DNA of 64,000 nucleotides, taken from positions 24,846-88,845 of the forward strand of contig CALRHH010000003.1 of assembly GCA_943359395.1 (NCBI GenBank), written 5' to 3'. Origin of the DNA: Candidatus Nomurabacteria bacterium (GTDB taxonomy: Bacteria; Patescibacteriota; Minisyncoccia; Phycocordibacterales; UBA2100). A program made the position numbers and the translations under genes. Under the pieces are notes generated by a model. That model was not told where the DNA came from and did not search any database. It was given only the letters and a program-made list of their open reading frames with translations. Positions 5,855-36,171 of the stretch are shown piece by piece. Each line of letters opens with the position of its first letter. The stretch's first letter is position 1.

Positions 5855-6742
5855 TCACTTCCTCAGCAATTGACGCTCTAATTCCGGTACCGAAATATTG
5901 CACTCCCTGTATTGTTCGTGAAATTTTTCTCTCAGCGCATTTCTTGATGCGTCAATCATAGGACGTATCCGTTCGTACCCATCGCGCTTATACCTGAGGG
6001 CAAGATTGGTCCAGACAGATTGATACACGATGCGTTTGAACGTGTACGCGTTACTCCAGTGCCTGAACAGGAGTTCGGGATTATTGAGGACAAAATCTAC
6101 GAGCGGCTGGCGCAGATACGAGAGACATAGCTCGGGTGTGCTGAAGTGAAAATACGGTTCGTGTGCAGTCGAATTATCCTTACACCATTCGAGCGGGATG
6201 GCATTACCGTTTGAAAATGGGAGGAAAAGGTCGGACCGAGTAATGACGGGTTTCGTACGATCTACGTCGTAGACCTGCTCGCCGCTGCAGAGCACCGCAT
6301 ACCCTCCCCTCTCCTCGACATGTTCCATGAGACGTATTTGTATATACCTGAAGGGGTGTACCGCGGGATATCGCTCATAGGCAGCAACGCCAGAAGAGAT
6401 GAAGGAGGTGATGTTCAGAGGAACTATTTCCTGGTGCACGCCACGATCACGGCACCACTGTGCAGCGTAGTGAATGTCGTGTTGATTGAGGCCGTCTTCA
6501 AATTCGAGCGTCAGTACGGAAAAAGGAATCTGCTGGTCGTAGAACGCCTGACACGCCACTTCGCTGTCTATTCCACCACTCGAACACACCCAAAGAGGTT
6601 TCTTGGCTTTATGAGCTATCGAATGCGCGGCGGTATATATTTCTTCCTTCCAAATTGCTGGCTCACGGCTACAGGGGGTAAAGCGGAGCGAGAATGCACC
6701 ATCCTTTTCTTTGCCTCCGGCTTCGAAAGTAAATGCGGTCAT
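5855..6742 (-). CDS. PP-loop ATP pyrophosphatase superfamily protein (adenine-nucleotide alpha-hydrolase fold; asparagine-synthetase-C-domain / QueC / TilS-like class).
   Basis: Canonical PP-loop SGGxDS present as VCSSGGIDSEV near the N-terminus. ~295 aa, too short to carry a glutaminase domain. 4-nt overlap with the upstream Cys-rich gene. Confidence 0.55.
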   Translation of the reverse strand: MTAFTFEAGGKEKDGAFSLRFTPCSREPAIWKEEIYTAAHSIAHKAKKPLWVCSSGGIDSEVACQAFYDQQIPFSVLTLEFEDGLNQHDIHYAAQWCRDRGVHQEIVPLNITSFISSGVAAYERYPAVHPFRYIQIRLMEHVEERGGYAVLCSGEQVYDVDRTKPVITRSDLFLPFSNGNAIPLEWCKDNSTAHEPYFHFSTPELCLSYLRQPLVDFVLNNPELLFRHWSNAYTFKRIVYQSVWTNLALRYKRDGYERIRPMIDASRNALREKFHEQYRECNISVPELERQLLRK

Positions 6743-7947
6743 GATGTACGGCTGAACGAACGAATTTGTTCCATAGGGTCAATACCGAGATTCCTCAGAC
6801 CTTGTTGGCATACGCCATCATCGCTTCCGCATATCTCCCGCATGCGTTCCATCGATGTTCCAATCCGATTTAGAAAAAAGAAGAGCCCTTGATAACAGAT
6901 GGTTCTCATGGGAACATCCGACATAGCGGCGCAATACAAGGCAAGTGGCTTCGTCCGATCTTCTGTCGCAACGGCAAGCTTGCCGATAATGCATGACGCT
7001 TCCGCCTGCCGGCTTCCGAGCCCCTGGCAGGACTTGACCGCGGCGGGTGTGTTCGTCAACACCAGGTAAGAACCACTAGACCCCATTCCGCTGAAACAAG
7101 CGGTTCGCGCCATAGCTTCCCCATACGATTCACACACGTTTTTCACAATTTCAAGCGACTGCGCTTCAGAAACGTCCTGCCGCCTGAGAGTGGCATAGAC
7201 CATCCGCGGGAAGTACCGGAAACAAGCGCGCATTTCGGGCAATGAGGGAAAATCGCAGAGGGAGCGCAGGGAATCCTTATCCGGATACTCGATGTCGGGC
7301 GGAGAAGTCATGCTTCTTGACGAGAGAATGTCGGCGTATTCCATCGTAACGCCGTTGTAACATTGATTGAGCATGGAGCCGGATACTTCTCGGCACACTG
7401 CAAATGCCGGCTCAAACTTCTGATATACTTGGAAAAGCGCATGCCCCACGCCATGGCAGGTCCCGATGTTTGTACATAGTCGCTTTCCGACTTTCCGCAA
7501 CTCATCCACGCTCATATGCGCGAGATTTAGTTTTTCGTAGTCTATCCCGAGTTCCTCGGCGAAAGCTCCCCCGATAATCCCGTGGATACAAGCTGAATCG
7601 CAGGCACGGTTGCACTGAGAGATTGCGGCTTCGACGTCGTGATACCTTGTATACATCTGTTGCCCGACAACGTGACCTACGTAATGGCACCACATCGGTC
7701 CAGAGCGGGCCGATAGTATATCCATGAGATCGGCGCCGCCCGTAAGCTCGAGCAGTTTTTTTATCTCAGGCCGGACACACGCCACCCCATCTTTTTCGCC
7801 GGCACAGGCCGATACGCCCGCGAGCGCGCTCCTGAATTTGTATGAAGGCCACCACTGATTGTAAAGAGATTTTGCTCCAAGAACTCCAAGGATTGCGGCG
7901 ACAATGACCAGTCCGAGCACAATCCCGCGCACATCAAAAAAACGCAT
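6739..7947 (-). CDS. Membrane-anchored (single N-terminal TM), strongly Cys-rich extracytoplasmic protein of unknown function with recurring C-x(n)-HG-[VI]-GH / C..G..G motifs.
   Basis: N-terminal helix IVLGLVIVAAILGVLGA. More than 20 Cys in ~370 extracytoplasmic residues. Repeated motifs WCHYVGHVVG, CHGVGHALFQ, CIHGIIGGAF, CFSGMGSSGS read directly from the translation. Confidence 0.45.
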   Translation of the reverse strand: MRFFDVRGIVLGLVIVAAILGVLGAKSLYNQWWPSYKFRSALAGVSACAGEKDGVACVRPEIKKLLELTGGADLMDILSARSGPMWCHYVGHVVGQQMYTRYHDVEAAISQCNRACDSACIHGIIGGAFAEELGIDYEKLNLAHMSVDELRKVGKRLCTNIGTCHGVGHALFQVYQKFEPAFAVCREVSGSMLNQCYNGVTMEYADILSSRSMTSPPDIEYPDKDSLRSLCDFPSLPEMRACFRYFPRMVYATLRRQDVSEAQSLEIVKNVCESYGEAMARTACFSGMGSSGSYLVLTNTPAAVKSCQGLGSRQAEASCIIGKLAVATEDRTKPLALYCAAMSDVPMRTICYQGLFFFLNRIGTSMERMREICGSDDGVCQQGLRNLGIDPMEQIRSFSRTS

Positions 7948-9142
7948 ACCTCATTGTACTCGACAAGCCAGATAGCGACCATCCGTTACTATTCAGGAAA
8001 TCCCTAAACGGCGGGTGGAGGGCGGACATTTGACTGAAACGGTCGTAGCTATACCAGCGGCCTTGAGTACCCGTCGGACCGGCGAGCATCGTTTCGCGCA
8101 TAAATGCAAAAAACGAATTTTTGTGTACATTCGGATGTGCTTCCATACGTTCAATCATTCTGTCCAGGTGTCCCCTAACCTCGGGTAGGCGTGCATCGCC
8201 GTCAATCGCATATATAAAAGTCGCCAGCGAGAAATCAGTATAGACGAGTCTTGCTTCTATCATGATATTCCCTTGCTCGTCCGCCGTCCGCCGCTCTTGG
8301 TAATAATCAAACACTTTTTGAAACGCCGCTTCCGCCTTGGGTAAATTCTCATGACGCACGAGAGCAATTGACGCATTCAAAAAACCTTGAAAATAATAGA
8401 AAGCCGGCGCCTGCACTTCCCAATACGGCCTCCCAAGAATCCTTTTTTCTTCTTCGGGAAACAGTATGTTCGTATCATCCAGGATTTTCTCAATCGACCG
8501 AATATGCCTATCCAAATTACTTGTCGAAAGTTTTTCTATCCCGTCAAAATGTTTGAATATACTTGTTGCATGCCAGATACCCACTTTAAAGTACGCGACG
8601 CTTGTCGGATATTTTGAGAGTGAATATTCGGCGAGGTTTTTCAACGATCCGACATCGTCACCCGGAATACGCAGCTCTCCGTACGGCTCACCTTTGAAAA
8701 TCTCGTCAATGAGCTGAGGTTCCATTGCGGTCGTTATGTATCCCAAGAGTCGATTGATGAGGAGTGCCTGATTGTAGGGGCTTCCCGGGTAAGTGAGTAA
8801 CTGCTCCTTCGTAAGGCGCACCGCCTCAAGTTGTTTTTGCATATCGCCGCCCCAGAAATCCGCGACGACAGTCGCGGTTATCGCCCGCTGTCCGGCAACG
8901 CTGCTTGTACCTGTCGTTTGGAGTATCTTTTGAGCACTTTCTTGTGTGGCGAGAAAATCCCCCTTCTCAGTTAAATCATAGGTAAGCTCAAGGTCGCGAG
9001 TGATTGTTGTTTGTGGGAGCCCGAAGAAAGTCCGGAACGTTGATTGCGGCGCCGTGAACTCATAGAGGATAAAAAGCGCGGCGCATAAGACGGCAGTTGC
9101 GATTACCGGTCCTGTAACGCTCGAGCGGGACATCATATTCAT
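7934..9142 (-). CDS. Membrane-anchored protein of unknown function (N-terminal TM GPVIATAVLCAALFILYEF, ~370-aa extracytoplasmic domain). Start set at the internal MNMMS Met whose ATG overlaps the upstream stop (ATGA).
   Basis: The long ORF (to 9229) begins with an Arg/Trp-rich stretch that is just the alternative-frame reading of the GGGDC-coding repeat. The Met at 9140-9142 forms an ATGA overlap with the stop of the upstream small gene, which is typical translational coupling. Confidence 0.45.
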   Translation of the reverse strand: MNMMSRSSVTGPVIATAVLCAALFILYEFTAPQSTFRTFFGLPQTTITRDLELTYDLTEKGDFLATQESAQKILQTTGTSSVAGQRAITATVVADFWGGDMQKQLEAVRLTKEQLLTYPGSPYNQALLINRLLGYITTAMEPQLIDEIFKGEPYGELRIPGDDVGSLKNLAEYSLSKYPTSVAYFKVGIWHATSIFKHFDGIEKLSTSNLDRHIRSIEKILDDTNILFPEEEKRILGRPYWEVQAPAFYYFQGFLNASIALVRHENLPKAEAAFQKVFDYYQERRTADEQGNIMIEARLVYTDFSLATFIYAIDGDARLPEVRGHLDRMIERMEAHPNVHKNSFFAFMRETMLAGPTGTQGRWYSYDRFSQMSALHPPFRDFLNSNGWSLSGLSSTMRYAFF

Positions 9143-9540
9143 GGACAATCGCCGCCGCCATCGCCACCGCCGCCACAATCGCCGCCGCCACAATCGCCGC
9201 CGCCATCGCCCCCACAACTGCCGCCACAATCTCCGCCGCCGCAGGCGGGTACCTCAGGGATTGGGGCGTCTGCATGGGCGATTCCAACTGTGTCGGATGC
9301 CCACGGAGAATACCCCGTCTTCGACGACGAGCCAAAGAGGACCAGAATGAACCCTATTGCCACAAGAAATACCGACGGAAGGTACCTTCCCGACGACTCC
9401 CCACCATTATGTGCATTTTCTGCGGTATCGTTATCGGACATAGAGTTTAATTGTTGCGCAACAATGCAACTATTGTACTCCTCCGTCCCGTCGCTGAAAA
9501 CAGGACGTGTGGATAAAAAGTGCGGGCCATCCGGACGCAT
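9139..9540 (-). CDS. Small membrane protein with one TM helix and a C-terminal Cys/Gly/Asp tail made of imperfect (GGGDC)n repeats. Alternative start at Met34 (ATG 9438-9440) would give ~100 aa.
   Basis: Translation ends ...PACGGGDCGGSCGGDGGGDCGGGDCGGGGDGGGDCP. TM segment YLPSVFLVAIGFILVLF. Encoded by a 15-nt tandem DNA repeat (ACAATCGCCGCCGCC, the reverse complement of GGC GGC GGC GAT TGT). First gene of the coupled operon. Confidence 0.45.
   Translation of the reverse strand: MRPDGPHFLSTRPVFSDGTEEYNSCIVAQQLNSMSDNDTAENAHNGGESSGRYLPSVFLVAIGFILVLFGSSSKTGYSPWASDTVGIAHADAPIPEVPACGGGDCGGSCGGDGGGDCGGGDCGGGGDGGGDCP
9145..9245. repeat. Imperfect 15-nt tandem repeat (~6 units) encoding the GGGDC pentapeptide repeat on the minus strand.
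   Basis: Units acaatcgccgccgcc / atcgccaccgccgcc read directly. Produces spurious Arg/His-rich ORFs in the other frames. Confidence 0.8.
9449..9464. promoter_or_regulatory. Perfect 16-bp palindrome ATTGTTGCGCAACAAT between the ArsR-family gene and the divergent operon. Candidate operator.
   Basis: Read directly. Lies 8 nt upstream of the Met34 ATG of the small GGGDC gene and ~115 bp from the ArsR start. ArsR/SmtB-family repressors typically bind imperfect 12-2-12 inverted repeats near their divergent targets. Confidence 0.35.
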
Positions 9541-24558: not shown

Positions 24559-25242
24559 TCAGGCGAGGATTTTTTCGATGGTGTTCCAATTTCGGGTGGT
24601 TATCTTCTTGCCGTACGATGCGCCGAGAAGTTTCATCACATCAGGCGTCTGCATCTTGGGATTGATTTCGAGCCAACTGTATACCTCGCCCGGAGTCACC
24701 TTCAGCACCGCATATTCATCGGTAAGACGCTGAGCCTTCATCGGTGAAGCTGGCTTCTCCGCGAGGAATGTCACATAGCGACGCGTCTGCGGGGTAACCT
24801 TGATGCCCTTGAATGGATTGGCCTTCTGCATTGTCTCTAGCTCCCCCACTGTGCGCACAATGACCCCGACATCAAATCCGAATTTCTTCTTGAGTGCCCC
24901 TTCAATCGTTTTCACGAGCGCGCTCGGCGTAGTCTTTCCCGAAGGGAAACGAACATTGCCGCTCGCGAGAAATGTCTGAACATCTTTGTACCCAAGTGAT
25001 TCCATGAGGGCGGCGAGCGCAGCCATTTTCACGATGCGCCTCCCCACATTAATCCCCAACAAAAACGCAACGTATTCCACTTCCGCATTATACCAAACCC
25101 GGTAGTCTGGCAAAAAATCCCGCTTGCACGGCGGGACCCTTGGGATACACCAACAGCTGAGACTAGCGTTCTGTGGAAATACGATTGAACCACTCCCCGA
25201 GCTTTCCCGCATTCTTCGCGCGGACCAAGGCGGCAGCGGCAC
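24559..25242 (-). CDS. DUF1697-family protein. True start is probably internal, because the 5' end of the ORF overlaps the upstream gene.
   Basis: YVAFLLGINVGRRIVKMAALAALMESLGYKDVQTFLASGNVRF matches the conserved DUF1697 N-terminal pattern (…LLRGINVGG.n.v.Ma.L…..lG…v.TyiaSGNvvF). Confidence 0.5.
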   Translation of the reverse strand: MPLPPWSARRMRESSGSGSIVFPQNASLSCWCIPRVPPCKRDFLPDYRVWYNAEVEYVAFLLGINVGRRIVKMAALAALMESLGYKDVQTFLASGNVRFPSGKTTPSALVKTIEGALKKKFGFDVGVIVRTVGELETMQKANPFKGIKVTPQTRRYVTFLAEKPASPMKAQRLTDEYAVLKVTPGEVYSWLEINPKMQTPDVMKLLGASYGKKITTRNWNTIEKILA

Positions 25243-26275
25243 TGACTATTCCCTTTTCGGCCTCGGTCGGAATGATGATGGTGATGCCGTCTCTGATGAA
25301 GCCCGTTCGGGCAGTCACCTCTTGCTCAATGGAGAGCTTTCGCTCTTTGAGCGCGAGTGTCTGTGCTTCCTCGGCAACAATATTCTGTTGGTCGGGAGTG
25401 AGAGATGCAAAGACAGTGCCGTTCATAACCATAAGCGTCAAAAACAAGTTGTGCTCTGTCTGAAGGACGGTCTTAATCTTATTGAATGCGGCGGGAGCTT
25501 TCGAACGATACGATTCGACGCGTATCATTTCTGCCTCTATCACCTGCAGACTGTCGTTCGCAATTCCCTCTTCCCACGCAGTCGATTGTTCGGGAACGTT
25601 ACTCTGCACAACGACACCCAATCCCTGCAAAAAGTCCTTCGAAAGGTACTGGACGGATGACGTGCGAAGGCCCGTGAGGTCGGCCAGCGACGAGATTGGT
25701 TTCGTCGTGAAAATGTCTCGATATCCGCCACTGTACGTAAAAGAGAGCGCATGAAGCTTCCCGCCAGAACCCGTATTTACCACGTCGCGCAACGCGTCCC
25801 CCACTGGCCCGTCGAGAACACGCGCAACCTGTTCGTGACTTGAAAATATCCCTGGTGCGTTGAGGATATCAAGCGGGTAGAGCGCGGGGTAAAGCTCTGA
25901 GTAACTAGTCACAGAAACCTGAGACATATCGGCTGCACCGCTATTCACCTCGGCGAGTCCTAAAGTATAAGTGGTTTTCGGACTACTGTAATCAACCGCG
26001 GAATAATTCGGGTCCACCAAGCGTATCGTGATAGCTCCTTGTGTACGCTGGTTGACCTTATCAGCAAATTCCTGGAGAAGAGCAACGTTATCGGTATTAT
26101 CCGGCTTGTGCGCCATGATAAAAGTGAGCGTCCGAGTCGCGACGGGGGTTGTCGCATAGTTTGCAAAGACGTAGTACCCGATTCCCGCTATTGCGAGAAC
26201 TGCAATTACGAGATAGGTGCTCCTGCTAGATGTCATATATATCGAGTACCGTAGTACAGTAACAATATAGCACAA
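25163..26275 (-). CDS. Membrane-anchored DctP-like (TRAP-type) solute-binding protein homolog. Second orphan copy.
   Basis: TM anchor STYLVIAVLAIAGIGYYVF. LTFIMAHKPDNTD…FADKVNQRTQGAITIRLV and EVNSGAADMSQVSVTSY resemble DctP family motifs. No DctQM nearby. Confidence 0.45.
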   Translation of the reverse strand: MCYIVTVLRYSIYMTSSRSTYLVIAVLAIAGIGYYVFANYATTPVATRTLTFIMAHKPDNTDNVALLQEFADKVNQRTQGAITIRLVDPNYSAVDYSSPKTTYTLGLAEVNSGAADMSQVSVTSYSELYPALYPLDILNAPGIFSSHEQVARVLDGPVGDALRDVVNTGSGGKLHALSFTYSGGYRDIFTTKPISSLADLTGLRTSSVQYLSKDFLQGLGVVVQSNVPEQSTAWEEGIANDSLQVIEAEMIRVESYRSKAPAAFNKIKTVLQTEHNLFLTLMVMNGTVFASLTPDQQNIVAEEAQTLALKERKLSIEQEVTARTGFIRDGITIIIPTEAEKGIVSAAAALVRAKNAGKLGEWFNRISTER

Positions 26276-26308: not shown

Positions 26309-26725
26309 TCATTTCCTACGAAGAAACTCCTCCCCCGCCACCTTCGCGACAGGAGTTACGGCGAAGTGTATAGCGTAGAGAAGCCCGCCGATAATAGCGA
26401 GATTCTTCAGGATTTGCGTAAGGCTTACATAATCCCAAAAGCCCCAGTATACGACGAGGGTCAGAATGAAGGTGAGGACCGAGATGCTGTAGGCGGCAAT
26501 CTTCGTTTTAAAACCAAAAAGTAGCGCGAGCCCGCACCCGAGCTCAACGATGATTGCAATCGCGACCACAATTTCCGGCATCGGGAATCCGTGCGAACCC
26601 ATAAAAAGTACGGAACCCGGAAAATCAAGGAGCTTCGACGCCCCATGAAAGATGAAAAGCAACGAGAGAAGTACCCGTCCCGCAACAGGTAGGTGTGTCT
26701 CTAGCAATGAGTGGCTCGGATTCAT
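26309..26725 (-). CDS. DoxX-family small membrane protein.
   Basis: VAGRVLLSLLFIFHGASKLLDFPG…IAIIVELGCGLALLFG matches the DoxX pattern (4 TM, conserved H/G/K). Confidence 0.6.
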   Translation of the reverse strand: MNPSHSLLETHLPVAGRVLLSLLFIFHGASKLLDFPGSVLFMGSHGFPMPEIVVAIAIIVELGCGLALLFGFKTKIAAYSISVLTFILTLVVYWGFWDYVSLTQILKNLAIIGGLLYAIHFAVTPVAKVAGEEFLRRK

Positions 26726-26744
26726 ATGTGAGGGGTGAAGTTGC

Positions 26745-27248
26745 TCATAATTTCCGCACAGTGTCGAGCTGCTCGACCATGTCGAGGTCGCTATCGCGCA
26801 TGAGTACTATCGCTGCAGCGGTACACTTCCCGCTTTTCACATCATCAAGCGTCACCCGATGATCCATCTTTCCATCACATATCAGTACTGATCTATTCTG
26901 TGAGCAAATACCGAACGTCTTCCCAGCCTCAGGGCTGTAAAAATAAAAAAATGGGTGTTTTTCGGAAGAAAAAGGCTTGTCCCGACCTAAATCGGTGTAT
27001 ACGAGCGATGCGTCTGGGTATTCCTTCTTTATACGCAAACCAGAATCAGGCTCGTGGAGTTGAGTATACACATCGGCTATTTTTCCAGACATACCCGTAG
27101 TAGTAATACGCTTCAACACAGCAACAGGCGTGCCTTGCGCGTCACGTCCCGCCTTCATAAATCCGAGTACGCCAAGCAGTGCAATGAGCACAAATCCAAC
27201 AACCCACATTTGCCGACGCTTAAGATGTGTAGAAAGATAAAAATTCAC
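26745..27248 (-). CDS. Membrane-anchored hypothetical protein.
   Basis: N-terminal TM WVVGFVLIALLGVLGFM. No motifs. Confidence 0.3.
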   Translation of the reverse strand: MNFYLSTHLKRRQMWVVGFVLIALLGVLGFMKAGRDAQGTPVAVLKRITTTGMSGKIADVYTQLHEPDSGLRIKKEYPDASLVYTDLGRDKPFSSEKHPFFYFYSPEAGKTFGICSQNRSVLICDGKMDHRVTLDDVKSGKCTAAAIVLMRDSDLDMVEQLDTVRKL

Positions 27249-28554: not shown

Positions 28555-28937
28555 ATAATTTAATTCCTTAAAACTAATAATCGGGATAAATCCCTCATAT
28601 CATGTCTTCGCTCGGATGAAGTGTAAGTGAAACTTCCACTTCAGTTCCTCGCTAGCCACGATAATTTATAATCTGCGCCAACGCTTTGGATGAGGCGAGA
28701 GCCTCGGTGCTCGGCGTATTCCTTGCGGGAGATATCCTTCGTTTAAAGCGGTTCGCTAGGCCGCACGGTGGAAATCCCGGACAAAATAATACGCACAGAG
28801 CGTGCGTCGGGACATAGTAGCAGAAGCCGCTTTTGCGTCAAGCTTTTGTGCGCGTCCAGTACATTTGGCACTCTTTGCAGGATGGTGTAATGCGAAAACT
28901 CGAGGTCGGAAACACCGGGGACGTAAAGATGTTTGTA

Positions 28938-30179
28938 TCAAAACCATCGCTTGAAAACATCCAACAGGCAGCCGAAGAACGTCGAGCAGTTTGGAGCATT
29001 CCCGGAAAAAAGATATTCCCCTTTGTCCACGAGTTGGTCCGGCCCTTTTTCGACTTCTGGAATTATGGAATGCGCGAGGATGTATGGGTCATGACGGATT
29101 CCTGTGACCATCCACGAGATCTCTTTGCCCGGCAGACCGCCGCCCACGACAAACGTATTGTCCTTCACTTCGTGCTTCACGTGCAGTTCCGGCATCGGCG
29201 CATCGATCGGGCGCAAGAAATACTGGAAGTCTTTGTTGAGCGCCTCGAAATATGCCGGCAAACGTATGGTCGCCATACCATCTTTCCCGATGACGGCGGT
29301 GCCCGCGTACTCATTGAGCGCATCCGGCGATTCGACGAATGAGTGGTACAGCAGCTCGTTTGCCGGATCCGCAGGATTGTCGATGACGAACGTCCCCGAT
29401 CCTTTGGTGAGATTACTGGAGACCGTTATGTTGCCAACGACCGATACCGCTTTGTTGATGCTGAGGTTGCGTGAAGAGGAGGGTAGGGTCCACGTAATTG
29501 AAACAGAGCCGGCGGTGCCACCTGAGCCGTTAGAGCCATCAGACGTGTATCCACCGCAAAACGGGTCTATGGAACCCGCAGGACTCCCGGCACCTCCGCT
29601 ACCGCCCGAACCAACGGTCACTGTGATATTTTGGCCCGTCGTGGGTGCACCAGCACCACCCGATGCCCACGTCTTGACCGCCTTTCCACCCGCGCCACCG
29701 GAACCACCAGAACCGCCTGAGGCCTGAGAGCCATTTCCCCCTGCTCCGCCACCCCCGCCGCCACTCCCTCCACCAGTAGTATTGGTGTCGCCCCCCGATG
29801 CGGTGCCGCTAGAGCCAGCGCTCCCGTTTTGGGATGCATATTGCCCCCCCGAACCGCCACCTCCGCTCCCACCGCTTACAGTGACCGAAGAGGCGAAAGA
29901 ACTTGCTCCACCACTTCCACCAGAACCGCCCAGAGCATAGGGATTAGTTGCGCTATTGCAGTATTCCCCTGAGCTAAGCCAGGCGGAACCGCCCGCTCCT
30001 CCTGCCCCGCCACCCCCTGCGCCGTTTACCGTCACCGTGAGCGAGCCGTACGAGGGAACGGTGAATGTGCCTGATGATGTGAAGTTCTGGGAACCAGCAA
30101 AGGCAAGCGCAGGCAATGCAAAGATGGCGAATGAGGCAAGCGCCAAGACTCCTAATCGATGTAGCGGCGTTATTTGCAT
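28938..30179 (-). CDS. Secreted Gly/Ser-rich protein with a conserved ~170-aa C-terminal domain (paralog 1 of 3). N-terminus resembles 'glycine-rich domain' proteins of tail-fibre type.
   Basis: Signal peptide …ALPALAFA. Then GSQNFTSSGTFTVPSYGSLTVTVNGAGGGG… poly-Gly/Ser run. C-terminal block FVIDNPADPANELLYHSFVESP…ISWMVTGIRHDPYILAHSIIPEVEKGP shared with the two neighbouring genes. Confidence 0.5.
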   Translation of the reverse strand: MQITPLHRLGVLALASFAIFALPALAFAGSQNFTSSGTFTVPSYGSLTVTVNGAGGGGAGGAGGSAWLSSGEYCNSATNPYALGGSGGSGGASSFASSVTVSGGSGGGGSGGQYASQNGSAGSSGTASGGDTNTTGGGSGGGGGGAGGNGSQASGGSGGSGGAGGKAVKTWASGGAGAPTTGQNITVTVGSGGSGGAGSPAGSIDPFCGGYTSDGSNGSGGTAGSVSITWTLPSSSRNLSINKAVSVVGNITVSSNLTKGSGTFVIDNPADPANELLYHSFVESPDALNEYAGTAVIGKDGMATIRLPAYFEALNKDFQYFLRPIDAPMPELHVKHEVKDNTFVVGGGLPGKEISWMVTGIRHDPYILAHSIIPEVEKGPDQLVDKGEYLFSGNAPNCSTFFGCLLDVFKRWF

Positions 30180-30778
30180 AACGGTTCAAAGACGCACTCC
30201 CCTTTATCGAGGAGCGCGCTGGGACCCTTCTCGACTTCAGGAACGATAGGATGCGCGAGGATGTACGGGTCGTGACGGATTCCTGTGACCATCCAGCTCA
30301 CCTCGCCGCCTGGTGCACCGCCGCCGATGACGAACGCGTTGTCTTGTATCTTTTGTTTAATGTACAGATTGGGCATCGACGCGTTCATTGGGAAGAATTG
30401 ATAAGTGGAATCCTTGTTGAGTGCCTCAAAGTAATCCGGTAGTTGAATTGTCGCTTCGCCTTTTCCATCGAACTGTGCGATTCCATTGTATTGATTCAGC
30501 GTATCGGGCGATTCGACGAACGAATGGTACAGGAGTTTGTTGGCAGGGTCCGTCGGATGGTCGATGACGAAGGTGCCTGCACCTTTGGAGATTGAGCCTG
30601 TGATATCAAACGTGCTCTTCGTAAGCAGGTTTGCATTGATGGTGAGCGCCGCTCGCGCCACAGGAGTGAGGGCGATAATCATGACAACGCCAACTCCGAG
30701 AATAAAGTATCGTCTCATACTATTTTTGTTTCGTGCTCGTCGCATACAATTCCGGATGAATGTACATGCCCTGCGCAT
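30170..30778 (-). CDS. Short paralog (2 of 3): signal/TM anchor plus the conserved C-terminal domain only, no Gly-rich region.
   Basis: FVIDHPTDPANKLLYHSFVESPDTLNQY…VSWMVTGIRHDPYILAHPIVPEVEKGP aligns block for block with the C-termini of the flanking genes. Confidence 0.5.
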   Translation of the reverse strand: MRRACTFIRNCMRRARNKNSMRRYFILGVGVVMIIALTPVARAALTINANLLTKSTFDITGSISKGAGTFVIDHPTDPANKLLYHSFVESPDTLNQYNGIAQFDGKGEATIQLPDYFEALNKDSTYQFFPMNASMPNLYIKQKIQDNAFVIGGGAPGGEVSWMVTGIRHDPYILAHPIVPEVEKGPSALLDKGECVFEPLCK

Positions 30779-32210
30779 ACGGGGCGCCCGCGCCTTTCTG
30801 TACTTCCGGAATTATTGGATTCGCGAGGATGTACGGGTCGTGCCGCACGCCGGTCACCATCCAGCTCACCTCTCCGCCAGGGCTCCCGCCCGCGATGGTG
30901 AAAACCGGAGTGCCTAACAATCCGAGAAAGCGCGGTTTTACCTTAACCGAAAGATGCAAATCCGGCATCGCAACCTCAATTGGCGTTGCGAAATAGCGGA
31001 AGTCTTTGTTGAGCGGCAAAAAATAGGTTGGCAGAGATATTGTCGCCTTGCCGGCATCATCGAGCGTCGCGCGGCCGACGTACACATTCATCACCTCCGG
31101 TGATTCCACGAACGAGTGGTAGAGCAATTTGTTCTTCGGGTCGAGCGGATGGTCGATAACGAACGAGCCTGAGCTCTTGGAGAGCGCGCCGGTGATATTG
31201 AGGTCGCCGTTGATAGTAACGGCCTTGTTGATAGTGAGTGTGGGCGACGCCGTCGTGAAGTTCTGAATGCTTCCGTATCCGGTGCCGTTGGAGTTGGTCG
31301 CATAGGCGCGTACGTAGTATGTGGTGCCCGTCGACAACGATGAGACGGCCCCGCTAAAAGAGCCTGTCCCCGATTTCGAGCCGAGCGTCGTGGTCGCAAT
31401 GACGGTCGTGAGCGTCGAAACAGTACCGTAAGCAAATCCGTGTTGTGTCGCGTCCGAACCGTTGGTCGCGGCAATGGAGCCGTTGAGCGTCGCACTGTTT
31501 ATCGTCACACCCGAAGCGGCCGAGGTGGTCACGGTGGGTGCAGCGGGGTCCGTCCACGTAATGGAGACGGAGCCCTTGGTGCCTGCATTGCCAGCGGTGC
31601 CCGACGCTGCACACCCCGCGCTTGTCCCTCCGCCGCCAGGGGTCCCTCCGTTTCCGACGGTGACCGTTATGCCCGCGCCCGGGGTAAGTTGGCCTACGGA
31701 GTAGGTTTTTACCGCTTTCCCTCCGGCAGCGCCATTCCCGCCAGTGCCGCCGCCGGGAAGTTGTTGACAATCTGGGTTTGCTGTAAAACCGCCGCCACCG
31801 CCGGTGCCGCCGCCTGCCCCTGCCCCTGTAGTGTTCGTGTCGCCGCCAGAAGCAGTGCCGCTGGAACCGTTGGAACCGGTACTTCCGGCACTAGAACCGC
31901 CGCCGCCATCTTGCGTGCCGCCGCCACCGCCGGTGCCGAAGCCGCCGCCGTTACCGATAACGTTGCCGTTGAAAGACACGGTTCCTCCTGATGTCCCCGC
32001 AGAACCATCCCCGCCGTTACCATAGAAAATATATGCCCCTCCACCGCCGCCTCCACCGCCGCCACCAGACCCGTTCACCGTGACGGTGAGCGACACGTAC
32101 GTTGGCACAGTAAAGGTGCCGCTTGAGGTGAAATTCTGCGAACCAGCAAAGGCAAGCGCAGGCAATGCGAAAAGTAGCAGCATTAGAAAAAGCACTCGCG
32201 CTTTCGGCAT
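30720..32210 (-). CDS. Secreted Gly/Ser/Thr-rich protein with conserved C-terminal domain (paralog 3 of 3). Longest copy.
   Basis: Signal peptide region nearly identical to paralog 1 (LPALAFAGSQNFTSSGTFTVP). A 29-nt identical DNA tract is shared with 30091-30119. C-terminal FVIDHPLDPKNKLLYHSFVESP…VSWMVTGVRHDPYILANPIIPEVQKG. Confidence 0.5.
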   Translation of the reverse strand: MPKARVLFLMLLLFALPALAFAGSQNFTSSGTFTVPTYVSLTVTVNGSGGGGGGGGGGAYIFYGNGGDGSAGTSGGTVSFNGNVIGNGGGFGTGGGGGTQDGGGGSSAGSTGSNGSSGTASGGDTNTTGAGAGGGTGGGGGFTANPDCQQLPGGGTGGNGAAGGKAVKTYSVGQLTPGAGITVTVGNGGTPGGGGTSAGCAASGTAGNAGTKGSVSITWTDPAAPTVTTSAASGVTINSATLNGSIAATNGSDATQHGFAYGTVSTLTTVIATTTLGSKSGTGSFSGAVSSLSTGTTYYVRAYATNSNGTGYGSIQNFTTASPTLTINKAVTINGDLNITGALSKSSGSFVIDHPLDPKNKLLYHSFVESPEVMNVYVGRATLDDAGKATISLPTYFLPLNKDFRYFATPIEVAMPDLHLSVKVKPRFLGLLGTPVFTIAGGSPGGEVSWMVTGVRHDPYILANPIIPEVQKGAGAPYAQGMYIHPELYATSTKQK

Positions 32211-32256
32211 CGATTTATTCTATCACTCGCCCGCTCCGGAAGGATGCGGGTGTTAC

Positions 32257-34398
32257 TTACTTCCTGCTTGCGATAACGAGGTCGGCAGCACTCTTCGGGA
32301 CAATCGCGTAGTGGCTGAATTCGAGGTTGGGGACGCCGCGGCCTTCGGTAAGGGATCGGAGCTGTGTGGTAAATCCAAACAATTCTGAAAGCGGCACTTT
32401 GGCCGTGATGACGCGTGCTTGTCCGCGCTCGCCCATCGCCTCGATAGCACCACGCTTCGAATTAATCATGCCGGTCACGTCACCCATGAACTTCTCAGGG
32501 ACAACGACTTCCAATTTCATGATTGGTTCGAGCAATACCGGCTTCGCTTTTTGCATAGCCTCTTGCATCGCGTTGATAGCCGCGAGCTTGAATGCGATTT
32601 CAGATGAGTCTACGTCGTGATACGAGCCGTCGTACAGCTCGACGGAAATGTCGACGACGGGGAATCCCGCTTGGATGCCACGCTCCATCGCTTCGATAAG
32701 ACCCTTTTTTACCGGCTGGATGTATTCCTGCGGAATGACGCCTCCTTTGATGTTGTTGATGAATTCGAAATGGTCTTCGCGGTCCACGTTGTTTTTGAGT
32801 TTCTTGCCTTCCTCCAACGGCTCCAATGGCTTGATGCGAATCTTGACGTGACCGTATTGGCCGCGACCTCCTGTCTGCTTGATGTGTTTGTATTCGACAT
32901 CCGCGGTGCCTTGAATGGTTTCGCGGTACGCGACCTGCGGCTTGCCCGTCGTTGCCTGCACGCCGAATTCGCGCTTCATGCGGTCAACGATAATTTCCAA
33001 GTGGAGCTCGCCCATTCCCGATACGATGGTTTCCATCGTTTCAGGGTCCGACTTGATGCGGAAGGTCGGATCTTCGTCGGAAAGCTTCGAGAGTGCCATA
33101 CCCATTTTCTCTTGGTCTGCTTTTGTGTTTGGCTCGATGCGCATTGAGACCACTGGCTCTGGGAATACGATTGATTCGAGTGCGATTGGGTGCGCGACGT
33201 CACAGAGAGTATGGCCGATTTTCACTTCTTTCATACCGACAGCTGCAGCGATTTCTCCTGCATAGACCGTCTTCACATCTTCACGCTTATCAGCCTGCAA
33301 GCGCACGATGCGTCCGACGCGTTCCTTCTTGTTGTTGGCAGAGTTGTATACCGTATCGCCGGCTGTGAATGTGCCTGAGTACACGCGGAAGAACGAAAGC
33401 TGTCCCACGAATGGGTCGGTCTGGATTTTGAAAACGAGTGCAGCGAAGGGAGCCTCATCGGATGCAGGACGAGTCTCTTCTGCGCCTGTATCCGTATTGA
33501 TGCCTTTTGATTCCGGCATGTCCTTCGGGCACGGGAGGTAATCCACGACCGCATCGAGTACGAGCTGCACGCCTTTGTTTTTGAGTGATGAGCCCGTGAG
33601 TACGGGGAAGATTTTGTTGGCGATGACACCCTTGCGAAGTGTCTTGCGGAGTGTTTCGAGTGGAATCTCTTTTCCATCCAAGAATTCAGCCATGACCGCA
33701 TCGTCATTCTCGACAATTCTCTCCACGAGCTCTGCGCGATACTTGTTCGCATCGGCCATCATGTCTGCGGGAATGTCATATGCAATGACATTTTTTCCCA
33801 TCTCTCCTTCAAATTTGTATGCCTTCATTGAGAGCAGGTCGATGATTCCCTCGAATTTATCTTCAAGTCCTATTGGGAGTTGGAATCGAACTGCCTTGTT
33901 TGAAAGCCGGTCCAAGATGCTTGCGTATGACTTTTCAAAAGATGCACCCGTGCGGTCGAGCTTGTTGATGTAGCAGATGCGGGGCACATTCGCCTCTTCT
34001 GCGTAACGCCAGTTGGTCTCGGATTGCGGCTCGACGCCGGCGACGCCGTCGAAGACGACAACTGCACCATCAAGCACGCGCATTGAACGCTTCACTTCTG
34101 AAGTAAAGTCGATGTGTCCAGGGGTGTCGATGATATTGAAACGGACTTTTTCGGAGAGGTCGGTGCCCATGTACGAGGGGTTCCAGAAACACGTGATGGC
34201 GGCGGCGGTGATGGTGATACCGCGCTCGCGCTCTTGTTCCATCCAGTCGGTGACTGTGTTGCCTTCGTGTACCTCACCGATTTTGTGCGACTCGCCTGTG
34301 TAATACAAAATACGCTCGGATGTGGTCGTTTTGCCCGCATCCACGTGCGCCACTATCCCAAAATTTCTCACCTTCTCCAACGGGTAATCTCTACTCAT
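32257..34398 (-). CDS. fusA: Elongation factor G.
   Basis: NFGIVAHVDAGKTTTSERILYYTG, DTPGHIDF and other full-length EF-G hallmarks. 713 aa. Confidence 0.95.
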   Translation of the reverse strand: MSRDYPLEKVRNFGIVAHVDAGKTTTSERILYYTGESHKIGEVHEGNTVTDWMEQERERGITITAAAITCFWNPSYMGTDLSEKVRFNIIDTPGHIDFTSEVKRSMRVLDGAVVVFDGVAGVEPQSETNWRYAEEANVPRICYINKLDRTGASFEKSYASILDRLSNKAVRFQLPIGLEDKFEGIIDLLSMKAYKFEGEMGKNVIAYDIPADMMADANKYRAELVERIVENDDAVMAEFLDGKEIPLETLRKTLRKGVIANKIFPVLTGSSLKNKGVQLVLDAVVDYLPCPKDMPESKGINTDTGAEETRPASDEAPFAALVFKIQTDPFVGQLSFFRVYSGTFTAGDTVYNSANNKKERVGRIVRLQADKREDVKTVYAGEIAAAVGMKEVKIGHTLCDVAHPIALESIVFPEPVVSMRIEPNTKADQEKMGMALSKLSDEDPTFRIKSDPETMETIVSGMGELHLEIIVDRMKREFGVQATTGKPQVAYRETIQGTADVEYKHIKQTGGRGQYGHVKIRIKPLEPLEEGKKLKNNVDREDHFEFINNIKGGVIPQEYIQPVKKGLIEAMERGIQAGFPVVDISVELYDGSYHDVDSSEIAFKLAAINAMQEAMQKAKPVLLEPIMKLEVVVPEKFMGDVTGMINSKRGAIEAMGERGQARVITAKVPLSELFGFTTQLRSLTEGRGVPNLEFSHYAIVPKSAADLVIASRK

Positions 34399-34672: not shown

Positions 34673-35215
34673 GTGAATATTCGAAACCCGCCTACAGTGC
34701 GCCTGTTCCCGAAACAAGCCGCTTATAATGCGTTCGACCTGCTTGCTTACGCGAATCTAGAATTCGGCGATGACGTCCCGCCCCTTCCTCTGCCCCCGAT
34801 GCTGATGCTTCACCGCATCATCGACATCAACGAGGTCGGCGGCAAGGACGGCAAAGGTTGCGCCGTTGCCGAATACGATGTACGGCCCGACGACTTCTAC
34901 TTCAAGTACCACTTCAAGAACAACCCGCTTATGCCCGGGGTCTATGGCCTCGATAGCGTGCTCCAGCTTGCGGGCTTCATGTTGGCGTGGACGGGCCCCC
35001 GCGGCGACGGTATGGCGGTTGGTGTTGACGGAGTAAAATTCCGCAACAAGATCACCCCGGACTCCGCTACCATCCGTATCGGCGTCGAGGTCAAGCAGAT
35101 TAGGCCCGGAAAAACTTCTATTATCCGGGCTTCCGGCTGGGTCAGAGACAGCACCAAGCTTATCTCCGAGATGGATGAGGTTGTGGTCGGCGTGGTAGCC
35201 AGAAAGGCCGCGTGA
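34673..35215 (+). CDS. FabA/FabZ-like hotdog-fold (3-hydroxyacyl-ACP) dehydratase, encoded antisense inside the str operon between rpsG and fusA. GTG start preceded by AAGGAGG.
   Basis: LPPMLMLHRIIDINEVGGKDGKGCAVAEYDVRPDDFYFKYHFKNNPLMPGVYGLDSVLQLAGF fits the FabZ/FabA signature (LPHR.P.LLvDrv…g….a.k.V..ne.fF.GHFp..PvmPGVl.iEa.aQ). Strong SD AAGGAGG 6 nt before GTG. Confidence 0.6.
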   Translation: MNIRNPPTVRLFPKQAAYNAFDLLAYANLEFGDDVPPLPLPPMLMLHRIIDINEVGGKDGKGCAVAEYDVRPDDFYFKYHFKNNPLMPGVYGLDSVLQLAGFMLAWTGPRGDGMAVGVDGVKFRNKITPDSATIRIGVEVKQIRPGKTSIIRASGWVRDSTKLISEMDEVVVGVVARKAA

Positions 35216-35287: not shown

Positions 35288-35749
35288 TTACCACGCGAAG
35301 TGGGCGAACGCTTTGTTTGCCTCAGCCATTCTGTGAGTCGTTTCTTTCTTAGTGACCGCGGCCCCTTCACCCTTATGCGCAGCTTGAATTTCAGCGAGAA
35401 GACTCTCGTGCATTGGCTTGCCCTTGGTACCTTCGGCAGCTTCTACAATCCAGCGCATACCGAGTGCCATTTTGCGAGCCGGATTCACTTCGCGCGGAAC
35501 CTGATAGTTGGCACCACCGACACGGCGTGAGCGTACTTCTACGGCAGGAGAGGCTTTTTCGAGCGCCTCTTCAAGAATGAGAAGGGGGTCCCCTTCTTTC
35601 TTCAATTCATCCATCACCCTGTAGACGATTTTGCGGGCAGTATCTTTTTTTCCGCACTCCATTACGTAGTTAATGAGCTTGGCAACCTTGAAAGAGCCGT
35701 AGACTTCGTCCGGCTGAGGCTGTTTTCTATTTTTGATAGGGCGTCGCAT
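35288..35749 (-). CDS. rpsG: 30S ribosomal protein S7.
   Basis: Full-length S7-like sequence (…KFINYVMECGKKDTARKIVY…ANYQVPREV…). Sits immediately after rpsL. Confidence 0.9.
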   Translation of the reverse strand: MRRPIKNRKQPQPDEVYGSFKVAKLINYVMECGKKDTARKIVYRVMDELKKEGDPLLILEEALEKASPAVEVRSRRVGGANYQVPREVNPARKMALGMRWIVEAAEGTKGKPMHESLLAEIQAAHKGEGAAVTKKETTHRMAEANKAFAHFAW

Positions 35750-35754
35750 AAAAA

Positions 35755-36171
35755 TTACTTGGCAGCTTTCGGTTTCTTTGCACCGTAGTTCGAACGGCCA
35801 CGACGGCGTTTCTCTACACCCGTAGCATCCAATTTTCCGCGAACGATAGTGTAGCGTACGCCGATGTCCTTCACGCGACCGCCGCGGATAAGGACAACTG
35901 AGTGCTCTTGCAGATTGTGGCCTTCTCCTGGGATGTAAGCGGTAACTTCCATGCCGTTGGTGAGGCGTACGCGGGCGATTTTACGGATTGCAGAGTTTGG
36001 TTTGCGAGGCGTCTTTGTAGTAACACGGGTGCAAACGCCGCGCTTAAAAGGAGCTGCATAGAATGAAGGTCGATTCTGGAGCGTATTGAAACCGCGCGAA
36101 AGCGCGATGGTCTTCGTGCGCCACGTCTTTTTGACTCGACTCTTGCGCGTAAGCTGATTTATCGTAGACAT
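35755..36171 (-). CDS. rpsL: 30S ribosomal protein S12.
   Basis: [12 protein letters not shown]…PKKPNSALRK-like core ([19 protein letters not shown]…[24 protein letters not shown]). Confidence 0.9.

Follow-up and report, generated by a model that had tools for sequence, protein, structure and literature searches.

The window analyzed here is a stretch of 64,000 nucleotides from a Candidatus Nomurabacteria bacterium (contig CALRHH010000003.1, positions 24,846 to 88,845 of the forward strand), a member of the Patescibacteria or candidate phyla radiation (CPR). Its str operon region carries three genes, designated A, B, and C, between fusA and tuf, the genes for elongation factors EF-G and EF-Tu. 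The open reading frame (ORF) listing gives the minus-strand order as rpsL, rpsG, a gap, fusA, A, B, C, a gap of 383 nt, and tuf. The features are given below in window coordinates; p1, p2, and p3 are position-specific classes of paralogs, and L002, L005, and L095 are loci of related bacteria, described further on.

35755-36171, minus strand, rpsL (ORF listing)
35288-35749, minus strand, rpsG (ORF listing)
34673-35215, plus strand, FabA-like dehydratase gene (Pfam FabA, E 8e-33)
32257-34398, minus strand, fusA (EF-G, 713 aa; 86% identical to the L002 gene with EF-G Pfam domains)
32211-32256, minus strand, fusA-A spacer of 46 nt, colinear with L095 in one blastn segment
30720-32210, minus strand, gene A, p1-class paralog of 496 aa, apparent chimera (ORF listing, hidden Markov model, tree)
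30170-30718, minus strand, gene B, p2-class paralog of 182 aa from the ATG at 30718 (ORF listing, homolog lengths)
28938-30179, minus strand, gene C, p3-class paralog of 413 aa (ORF listing, hidden Markov model, tree)
28791-28841, minus strand, promoter-like element and hairpin, conserved with L002
27352-28554, minus strand, tuf (EF-Tu, 400 aa; 93% identical to the L002/L005 gene with EF-Tu Pfam domains)

The presence of three paralogs on one strand between fusA and tuf had been proposed in a preliminary description of this DNA, and is confirmed by the ORF coordinates and by a family hidden Markov model (HMM), which scores A, B, and C at 229-308 bits (E 1e-69 to 1e-93). The three proteins share approximately 170 C-terminal residues, hereafter the C-domain, at 55-65% identity, and their alignment contains the two motifs originally quoted, FVIDxPxDPxNxLLYHSFVESP and SWMVTG[IV]RHDPYILA. 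Family membership was assessed by a profile match that includes SKGxGxFxIDHPxDPxNKxLYHSFVESP and SW(Q/M)VTG(I/V)R(H/x)D, to which all three conform. Each bears a Sec signal peptide as read from its sequence, one more than the two first recognized. The difference lies in gene B, which is listed as 30170-30778 (202 aa) but for which the preferred start is the ATG at 30718, equivalent to M21 of the listed ORF and situated one base past the stop codon of A (TAGTATG; …AAATAGTATGAGA…). B most likely begins at this ATG, which gives a 182-aa protein bearing a signal peptide of its own (MRRYFILGVGVVMIIALTPVARA/ALT); this length agrees with that of homologs of about 180 aa, and from both observations we surmise that all three proteins are secreted. 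In B the signal peptide (residues 1-23) is followed by a stalk and the C-domain, which ends in the tail KGECVFEPLCK with two near-invariant Cys residues. The ATG of C lies within B, giving a 10-nt overlap, and the abutting or overlapping starts and stops at A-B and B-C suggest that the three genes are translationally coupled. A and C share, in addition to the signal peptide, a Gly-rich module of approximately 205 aa opening GSQNFTSSGTFTVP. The modules of these two proteins are as follows.

32145-32210, minus strand, A, signal peptide (residues 1-22)
31539-32144, minus strand, A, TNF-like/polyglycine module (residues 23-224; TNF, tumor necrosis factor)
31236-31538, minus strand, A, segment resembling immunoglobulin (Ig) or fibronectin type III (FN3) domains (residues approximately 225-325), with weak Big_10/fn3 matches
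30723-31235, minus strand, A, short stalk and conserved C-domain (residues 326-496)
30096-30179, minus strand, C, signal peptide (residues 1-28)
29475-30095, minus strand, C, TNF-like/polyglycine module (residues 29-235)
28941-29474, minus strand, C, C-domain and conserved Cys-containing amphipathic tail (residues 236-413)

The Ig/FN3-like segment of A also has an NCBIfam match to the N-terminal β-sandwich of BT0360.

No significant model for the C-domain came out of scanning A, B, and C against Pfam, NCBIfam, and PHROG, and a 72-sequence profile run against PDB sequences returned only noise at E ~0.2, to Mycoplasma P116. The preliminary description could not name this domain, and no curated family emerged from these searches. 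The family, though it has no name, is not rare and ranks among the larger unannotated domains of bacteria and phages. A HMMER search over 1.84 billion cluster representatives (clusters at 50% identity) recovered 15,771 proteins at E<=1e-3, of which 6,907 reach E<=1e-30. At least 590 loci, counting one genome per species, carry the domain at 50-60% identity over approximately 125 residues, and these span the Bacteroidota, Acidobacteriota, Chloroflexota, Planctomycetota, Proteobacteria, Verrucomicrobiota, and others. When B was used in a word-indexed search, 1,015 matches resulted; those listed are of about 180 aa, and the few among them with a named source come from Kaiserbacteria, Parcubacteria, Paceibacterota, or Patescibacteria. 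An exact-sequence look-up of contigs with A gave no match. In nearly all of some 230 proteins among the matches listed, as in A, B, and C, the domain ends approximately 0-40 residues from the C-terminus. The host proteins measure 200-1700 aa overall and 400-1700 aa outside Patescibacteria, where the upstream portions are mostly unannotated, with sporadic Collagen, Laminin_G_3, CBM96, CBM_5_12, and UspA1-type adhesin repeats. In an example from Taibaiella the C-domain directly follows a collagen triple-helix region; collagen-like regions need a trimerizing domain.

The same domain ends tail-fiber-like proteins in ten IMG/VR contigs. One such phage protein matches tail and tail-fiber PHROGs at its N-terminus (24607, 28473, 1980), and its C-domain region corresponds to positions ~307-451 of phrog_17834. 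Among cultured phages it is carried by gene 19 of Arthrobacter phages Mufasa8 and Sonali and by Synechococcus phage S-T4; Mufasa8 gp19 is annotated as "minor tail protein," and its gene closes the tail module, lying between the tape-measure gene and the lysis genes. Two related IMG/VR phage contigs (L092, 6070-12801; L093, 6543-13274) encode three tandem paralogs of 716-775 aa in which very Cys-rich N-terminal parts precede the conserved domain and an extra C-terminal extension follows it, a phage parallel to the cellular trio. Tandem arrays of five to seven large proteins, all ending in the C-domain, are present outside Patescibacteria in some Acidobacteriota-type and peat-metagenome loci (L064, 5449-20391; L105, L104, L097, and L106).

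In the C-domain, a stretch of strong conservation (SKGxGxFxIDHPxDPxNKxLYHSFVESP) precedes a predicted β-sandwich. The AlphaFold2 model of mature B has a mean predicted local distance difference test (pLDDT) score of 80.8, rising above 92 in an all-β core (residues 51-130). Invariant polar residues across the family are D30, S43, E46, S47, R125, D127, E138, and K141, with H31 and H42 nearly so.

The heads of A and C are predicted to adopt the receptor-binding fold of Pam3 gp24, Bxb1 gp33, and the ALK glycine-rich domain, that is, a β-sandwich of TNF topology with Gly-rich extended segments packing into a polyglycine-II lattice. In Pam3 gp24 the TNF-like domain and the glycine-rich one make up the fiber's distal part, for which host-receptor recognition has been proposed, and a variable tip is borne on conserved Gly stems; likeness to S16 gp38 and ALK was also noted (PMC9608196). 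Domains of Bxb1 gp33 and gp29 have been recognized as belonging to this kind, with helical bundles of polyproline-II type (PMC13243192). The initial comparison of this module with phage tail-fiber-like glycine-rich proteins thus stands at the level of fold. At the sequence level it does not: neither A nor C matches PF21722 (Gly_rich_2; gathering score 24.3 bits) even at E<=1, and only 2 of 13 homologous head modules do so, weakly (best E 0.0024), for which reason kinship is claimed for the fold only. These 13 aligned modules are C-terminal in most other proteins, some of which have phage-like N-termini. A homolog search with the Gly-rich head gave 11 matches, swamped by poly-Gly words, and two with Gly runs masked. 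A second type of head occurs in p3 of L002 and p2 of L009 and scores 19.6-21.2 bits over nearly the full Gly_rich_2 profile. A Gly_rich_2-like head beginning "TTIYLTSGTSWTVP…" is present in p3 of L005 and L001 and in p2 of L009 and L010, as against the "GSQNFTSSGTFTVP" head of the window and L095. Alignment of the two types with hhalign joined the first strand alone, with a probability of 38%.

The history of the trio was followed in related genomes. A scan of metagenomes for exact peptide patterns from B led only to L095 and L096, two Joint Genome Institute (JGI) contigs whose source is a very close relative and whose EF-G is 96.6-97.5% identical to that of the window; L002 and L005 represent relatives with 86% identity in EF-G and 93% in EF-Tu. 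Directly after fusA, L095/L096 carry a short p1 (approximately 195 aa), p2, and p3; the last, at about 411 aa, shares the head of C, and in L095 another secreted protein comes after it. The fusA-tuf gap of L002/L005 measures approximately 10 kb and holds the trio, an 889-aa PG_binding_1 + F5/8-type-C protein, and four further genes. The trio adjoins fusA only in such close relatives (EF-G 86-97% identical) and is found elsewhere in more distant Patescibacteria. The arrangement beside fusA is therefore ancestral to a narrow clade, within which the fusA-tuf gap behaves as a variable surface-protein island.

Three paralogs are present in every examined Patescibacteria locus uncut by a contig end, and they are usually adjacent and overlapping. 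A neighbor-joining tree groups the C-domains by position rather than by genome: p1 forms one clade, p2 another, and p3 two groups. The classes also differ in their tails, which read …YxHPELY… in p1 (as in the consensus from outside the CPR), …GECxFEPLC… in p2, and …GNAPxCSTxFGCxxDxFKRWF in the p3 group to which C belongs. Position-specific clades indicate that the triplication predates the radiation of these Patescibacteria and is ancient. The chain that bears the N-terminal head varies between genomes, as is apparent from the lengths below.

Window: p1 496 aa, p2 182 aa, p3 413 aa
L005: p1 ~195 aa, p2 ~190 aa, p3 451 aa
L009: p1 ~190 aa, p2 ~430 aa, p3 ~245 aa
L006: p1, p2, and p3 all short

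One contig of Candidatus Kaiserbacteria (JACRFK010000003.1) contains two three-paralog sets, L001 and L011, some 10-20 kb apart; the cassette can thus be duplicated as a unit. In distant Patescibacteria the trio often has a giant protein ahead of it and, behind it, arrays of a membrane-anchored Cys/His-rich family of about 400 aa. Immediately upstream of it, four loci (L004, 1-6892; L009, 1-7302; L011, 1-3555; L006, 2-931) carry homologous giant proteins, for one of which 4,795 aa were called. The Cys/His-rich proteins, with motifs such as CYHGLGHG, adjoin it as multi-copy arrays in most of the other Patescibacteria loci (L004, 9496-16549; L006, 4301-6510; L007, 1367-4934; L009, 11244-14612; L011, 8649-12408), and the window itself has one member (6739-7947, minus strand), 22 kb from the trio. 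This family may be a functional partner of the trio. Pfam scans of these neighbors, the Cys/His-rich family and the giant proteins, gave no match.

Gene A is, to judge from nucleotide comparisons, a recent chimera, in which modules were inserted into a short p1 gene just past the signal-peptidase site. In a blastn comparison with L095 the segments 34462-32161 and 31232-29989 of the window align and the stretch between them is unmatched; p1 in L095, L005, and L001 is of about 195 aa, against 496 aa in A. The elements concerned are the following.

31233-32160, minus strand, in-frame insert of ~928 nt (Gly-rich and Ig-like modules), missing from the short p1 of L095/L096
32140-32168, minus strand, 29-nt tract, copy in A, encoding ALPALAFAGS at the signal-peptide cleavage site
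30091-30119, minus strand, 29-nt tract, copy in C, an exact match to 32140-32168

A nucleotide alignment of four 5′-ends reveals that A begins with a p1-type signal peptide, continues with the 29 nt identical to C, and passes into a p3-type head. This identity, already pointed out in the preliminary description, is exact; it straddles the left junction of the insertion and is accordingly read as a recombination or gene-conversion crossover. It lies within a 134-nt stretch of 78% identity, and at that identity such a run would be expected approximately 0.02 times by chance (our own estimate). The remainder of the A head is 63.6% identical to the C head at the protein level, close to the 62% between the C head and its L095 ortholog, which suggests either that the donor was not simply the resident C gene or that heads diverge very fast. 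Identity to L095 falls from 96.6% for EF-G to 84.7% for the C-domain of A, 83% for B, 76% for the C-domain of C, and 62% for the head of C; this gradient marks the heads as the fastest-evolving part. Gene A offers a clean natural example of the in-frame insertion of a head module, with the apparent crossover inside the signal peptide.

The spacer between fusA and A contains a hairpin of -13.8 kcal/mol without a U-tract and hence no canonical intrinsic terminator. Read-through from fusA into A-B-C, with fusA as the first gene of the unit, is plausible on this evidence. The preliminary description had assumed co-transcription with both elongation factors, and from this very high expression. The portion concerning EF-G is thus plausible; that concerning EF-Tu is unsupported, and the expression argued from it doubtful. 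Downstream of C, at 28841-28791, lie TTGACG-N16-TACTAT preceded by TG, a hairpin (ACGCACGCTCTGTGCGT; -8.7 kcal/mol), and a U-rich tail. L002 matches the element at nearly every base, whereas the sequences upstream of it are unrelated; since conservation begins where the variable cargo ends, tuf appears to be served by a conserved control region of its own. Instead or in addition, the hairpin may be where transcripts of the island end. A second conserved block upstream of tuf (window 28620-28700, minus strand; L002, 14440-14480) reads …GCGTTGGC…ATTATAAATTA…; the true -10 region may lie here, or the block may be a leader element. Between it and the tuf start the window carries approximately 85 additional nt. 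Scans of the 383-nt C-tuf gap for tRNAs and Rfam families returned nothing.

Beyond tuf, the window encodes a 167-aa protein of no assigned family, a DoxX membrane protein, and a DctP-type solute-binding protein (26309-27248 and 25163-26275, minus strand) rather than the S10 ribosomal-protein operon. In L002/L005 the rpsG-fusA junction holds other genes: PEMT-like, UDG, and two minus-strand ORFs. Away from this region, a 133-aa ORF (9139-9540, minus strand) possesses one hydrophobic segment and a C-terminal Gly/Asp/Cys repeat tail (…ACGGGDCGGSCGGDGGGDCGGGDCGGGGDGGGDCP); its repeat DNA (9132-9253) is the sole other repeat family in the window.

On balance, we consider it somewhat probable that A, B, and C are Sec-secreted surface proteins, built from two modules that also occur in phage receptor-binding proteins, with a role in host-surface recognition or adhesion. 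A surface or adhesin function had been suggested at the outset and is the best reading of the data. The C-domain would serve as an oligomerization or assembly module (a "foot"), most likely forming trimers as in tail fibers and tailspikes; trimerization is proposed from its fold matches and the collagen-fused homolog, the structure predictions being of monomers only. Ligand binding would fall to the TNF-like/polyglycine domain at the N-terminus of A and C, which would form an exposed head that evolves fast. Fixed order and translational coupling suggest that the products of the p1-p2-p3 cassette are probably made together, and they may co-assemble. The cassette would lie in a variable surface-protein island downstream of fusA and probably be read through from it, with tuf separately controlled. 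Heads would be exchanged by recombination, of which gene A would be a recent example. The likely target is the surface of another cell, namely the host of the episymbiont, since a CPR bacterium is presumed to live attached to other cells and host-surface recognition is then the obvious role. The neighbors of the trio in relatives are other large secreted proteins (PG_binding_1 + F5/8-type-C and the giant proteins).

Several observations weigh against this. The domain order is inverted, the Gly-rich head being N-terminal in the window and C-terminal in the Pam3 fiber and most homologs. The very high cross-phylum conservation of the C-domain (50-60% identity) is unusual for a receptor-binding part, and binding was on this account assigned to the head. 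The most conserved motif falls in the weaker part of the B model (the N-terminal 50 residues, pLDDT 62-76) and might be catalytic, metal-binding, or self-processing. Finally, no cell-anchoring signal was found in A, B, or C: LPXTG is absent on reading their sequences, and Pfam/NCBIfam scans gave no sorting-domain match (Por_Secre_tail).

Fixed order, coupling, and class-specific tails also allow a bolder proposal, which we think unlikely: that p1, p2, and p3 are the chains of an obligate heterotrimeric C1q-like/tail-fiber-like complex of Paceibacteria-type CPR bacteria, assembled 1:1:1 through the C-domain, with exchangeable phage-type heads setting host specificity, and expressed from a hypervariable str-operon island. 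Improbable to a like degree is that the three are abundant structural envelope proteins of an S-layer or sheath-like lattice, sited beside translation-factor genes so as to be expressed constitutively at a high level. Their place immediately after fusA, uninterrupted by a canonical terminator, the secretion signals, and the universality of the family within the lineage (>1,000 homologs) would all suit such a lattice, which three co-expressed paralogs could tile; in more distant relatives, however, the trio is away from fusA/tuf, some genomes have two trios (as with L001 and L011 on one contig), there is no similarity to known S-layer folds, and quick-evolving heads swapped between paralogs are a better fit for recognition. 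An enzymatic role for the C-domain, or one as an assembly chaperone that cleaves itself, is quite unlikely; the mature products would then be the N-terminal parts alone. The model for such a chaperone is S74, an intramolecular chaperone domain of endosialidases and tail spikes that is C-terminal on diverse proteins. The C-terminal site of the C-domain on very diverse fiber-like proteins mirrors that distribution, and invariant polar residues cluster in its motif at 50-60% identity across phyla, yet Peptidase_S74 is not matched in A, B, C, or 80 other family members, nor did any other Pfam or NCBIfam model match. Moreover, p1 and p2 of Patescibacteria are usually a signal peptide plus the C-domain alone, and a discarded folding helper makes no sense where there is no upstream part to fold.

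The phage kinship raises the prospect that the trio is a remnant of a prophage, tailocin, or gene-transfer agent, that is, tail-fiber genes domesticated without a cellular surface role. The closest structural and sequence relatives of both modules are indeed phage tail proteins, and three tandem paralogs recur in the phage contigs L092/L093. This explanation is nonetheless very unlikely, given that Sec signal peptides take the place of virion-attachment N-termini, that no other phage genes flank the trio (its neighbors are fusA, tuf, and housekeeping or transport genes), that the ordered trio is kept across distant Patescibacteria in differing genomic contexts, and that the G+C content (GC) of the C-domain matches the genome; none of A, B, or C has a significant PHROG tail match. 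High GC (0.63-0.67) at 29500-30000 and 31250-32000 reflects Gly codons, the C-domain parts lying at a local ~0.52-0.55, and compositional evidence for a foreign origin was therefore dropped. Least tenable, and largely refuted, is the notion put forward in the preliminary description that a strong promoter is being exploited here, either by a selfish element inserted not long ago or by a phase- or antigen-variable family that duplicated recently. It draws on the differing content of the fusA-tuf gap among close relatives and on the ongoing recombination evident from the 29-nt identity and chimeric A. On the other hand, the trio occupies the same place after fusA in all three close relatives, and its paralogs split before the radiation of these Patescibacteria and retain only 55-65% identity, so that neither insertion nor duplication can be recent. 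The ORF listing and repeat search of the window disclosed no transposase, integrase, or other mobile-element gene, no flanking or terminal repeats, no phase-variation machinery or invertible element, and no template/variable repeat of the type found in diversity-generating retroelements. Repeats of at least 45 nt in the 64 kb were confined to paralog segments and the 9132-9253 repeat; reverse transcriptase was not exhaustively sought.

How most Patescibacteria recognize and attach to their hosts is largely unknown, and a lineage-wide trio of secreted proteins with swapped heads is a concrete candidate. Type IV pili in Saccharibacteria came up in the literature on this subject (e.g., PMC12206443, PMC9894109). 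Searches of the literature for PF21722 and for Patescibacteria tail fibers or adhesins gave no paper on the C-domain family. Both modules are of known structural kinds; the arrangement, cellular and Sec-secreted with an N-terminal head, in an ordered trio and within a str-operon island, was not found described in the literature searched. The C-domain lacks a curated model or structure, and defining it would annotate thousands of fiber-like and phage minor tail proteins.

By comparison with the canonical str operon, the window keeps rpsL-rpsG-fusA-tuf in canonical order and all on one strand. The operon is not contiguous, however, being broken at rpsG-fusA by the opposite-strand FabA-like gene and at fusA-tuf by the trio. 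Breaks recur in the relatives L095/L096 and L002/L005, and relatives bear other cargo at both junctions. The str operon can thus host a variable surface-protein island.

The closest counterparts of the heads are the Pam3 gp24 fiber (7ypx), the Bxb1 gp33 "tail wing brush" (9d93), S16 gp38, and the ALK/LTK glycine-rich domain. In the phage proteins the TNF-like/Gly-rich domain is located at the distal C-terminus of a virion fiber, whereas in the window it is N-terminal, following a signal peptide, in a cellular protein, and has no adjoining gene for a gp25/Tfa-type chaperone. The β-sandwich of the C-domain has its kin in the Pam1 tailspike (7eea), the R2 pyocin fiber (6cl6/6cu2), AP22 gp53 (4mtm), and the K64-1 depolymerase (9k4a). 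Sequence identity to these solved structures is only 12-20%, and no solved structure belongs to the C-domain family; IDHPxDPxNKxLYHSFVESP is absent from them as far as tested, and typical receptor-binding tips show far less conservation than this family does. With the collagen-like fibers of Bacillus BclA and C1q the proteins have in common a variable stalk and a conserved C-terminal globular domain, and one C-domain member has collagen repeats directly upstream. The three paralogous chains of C1q are encoded by tandem genes, and the parallel with p1-p2-p3 is offered as an analogy. The C-domain of the window differs in that its fold matches phage fiber domains and not C1q/TNF, the TNF-like fold residing instead in the N-terminal module.

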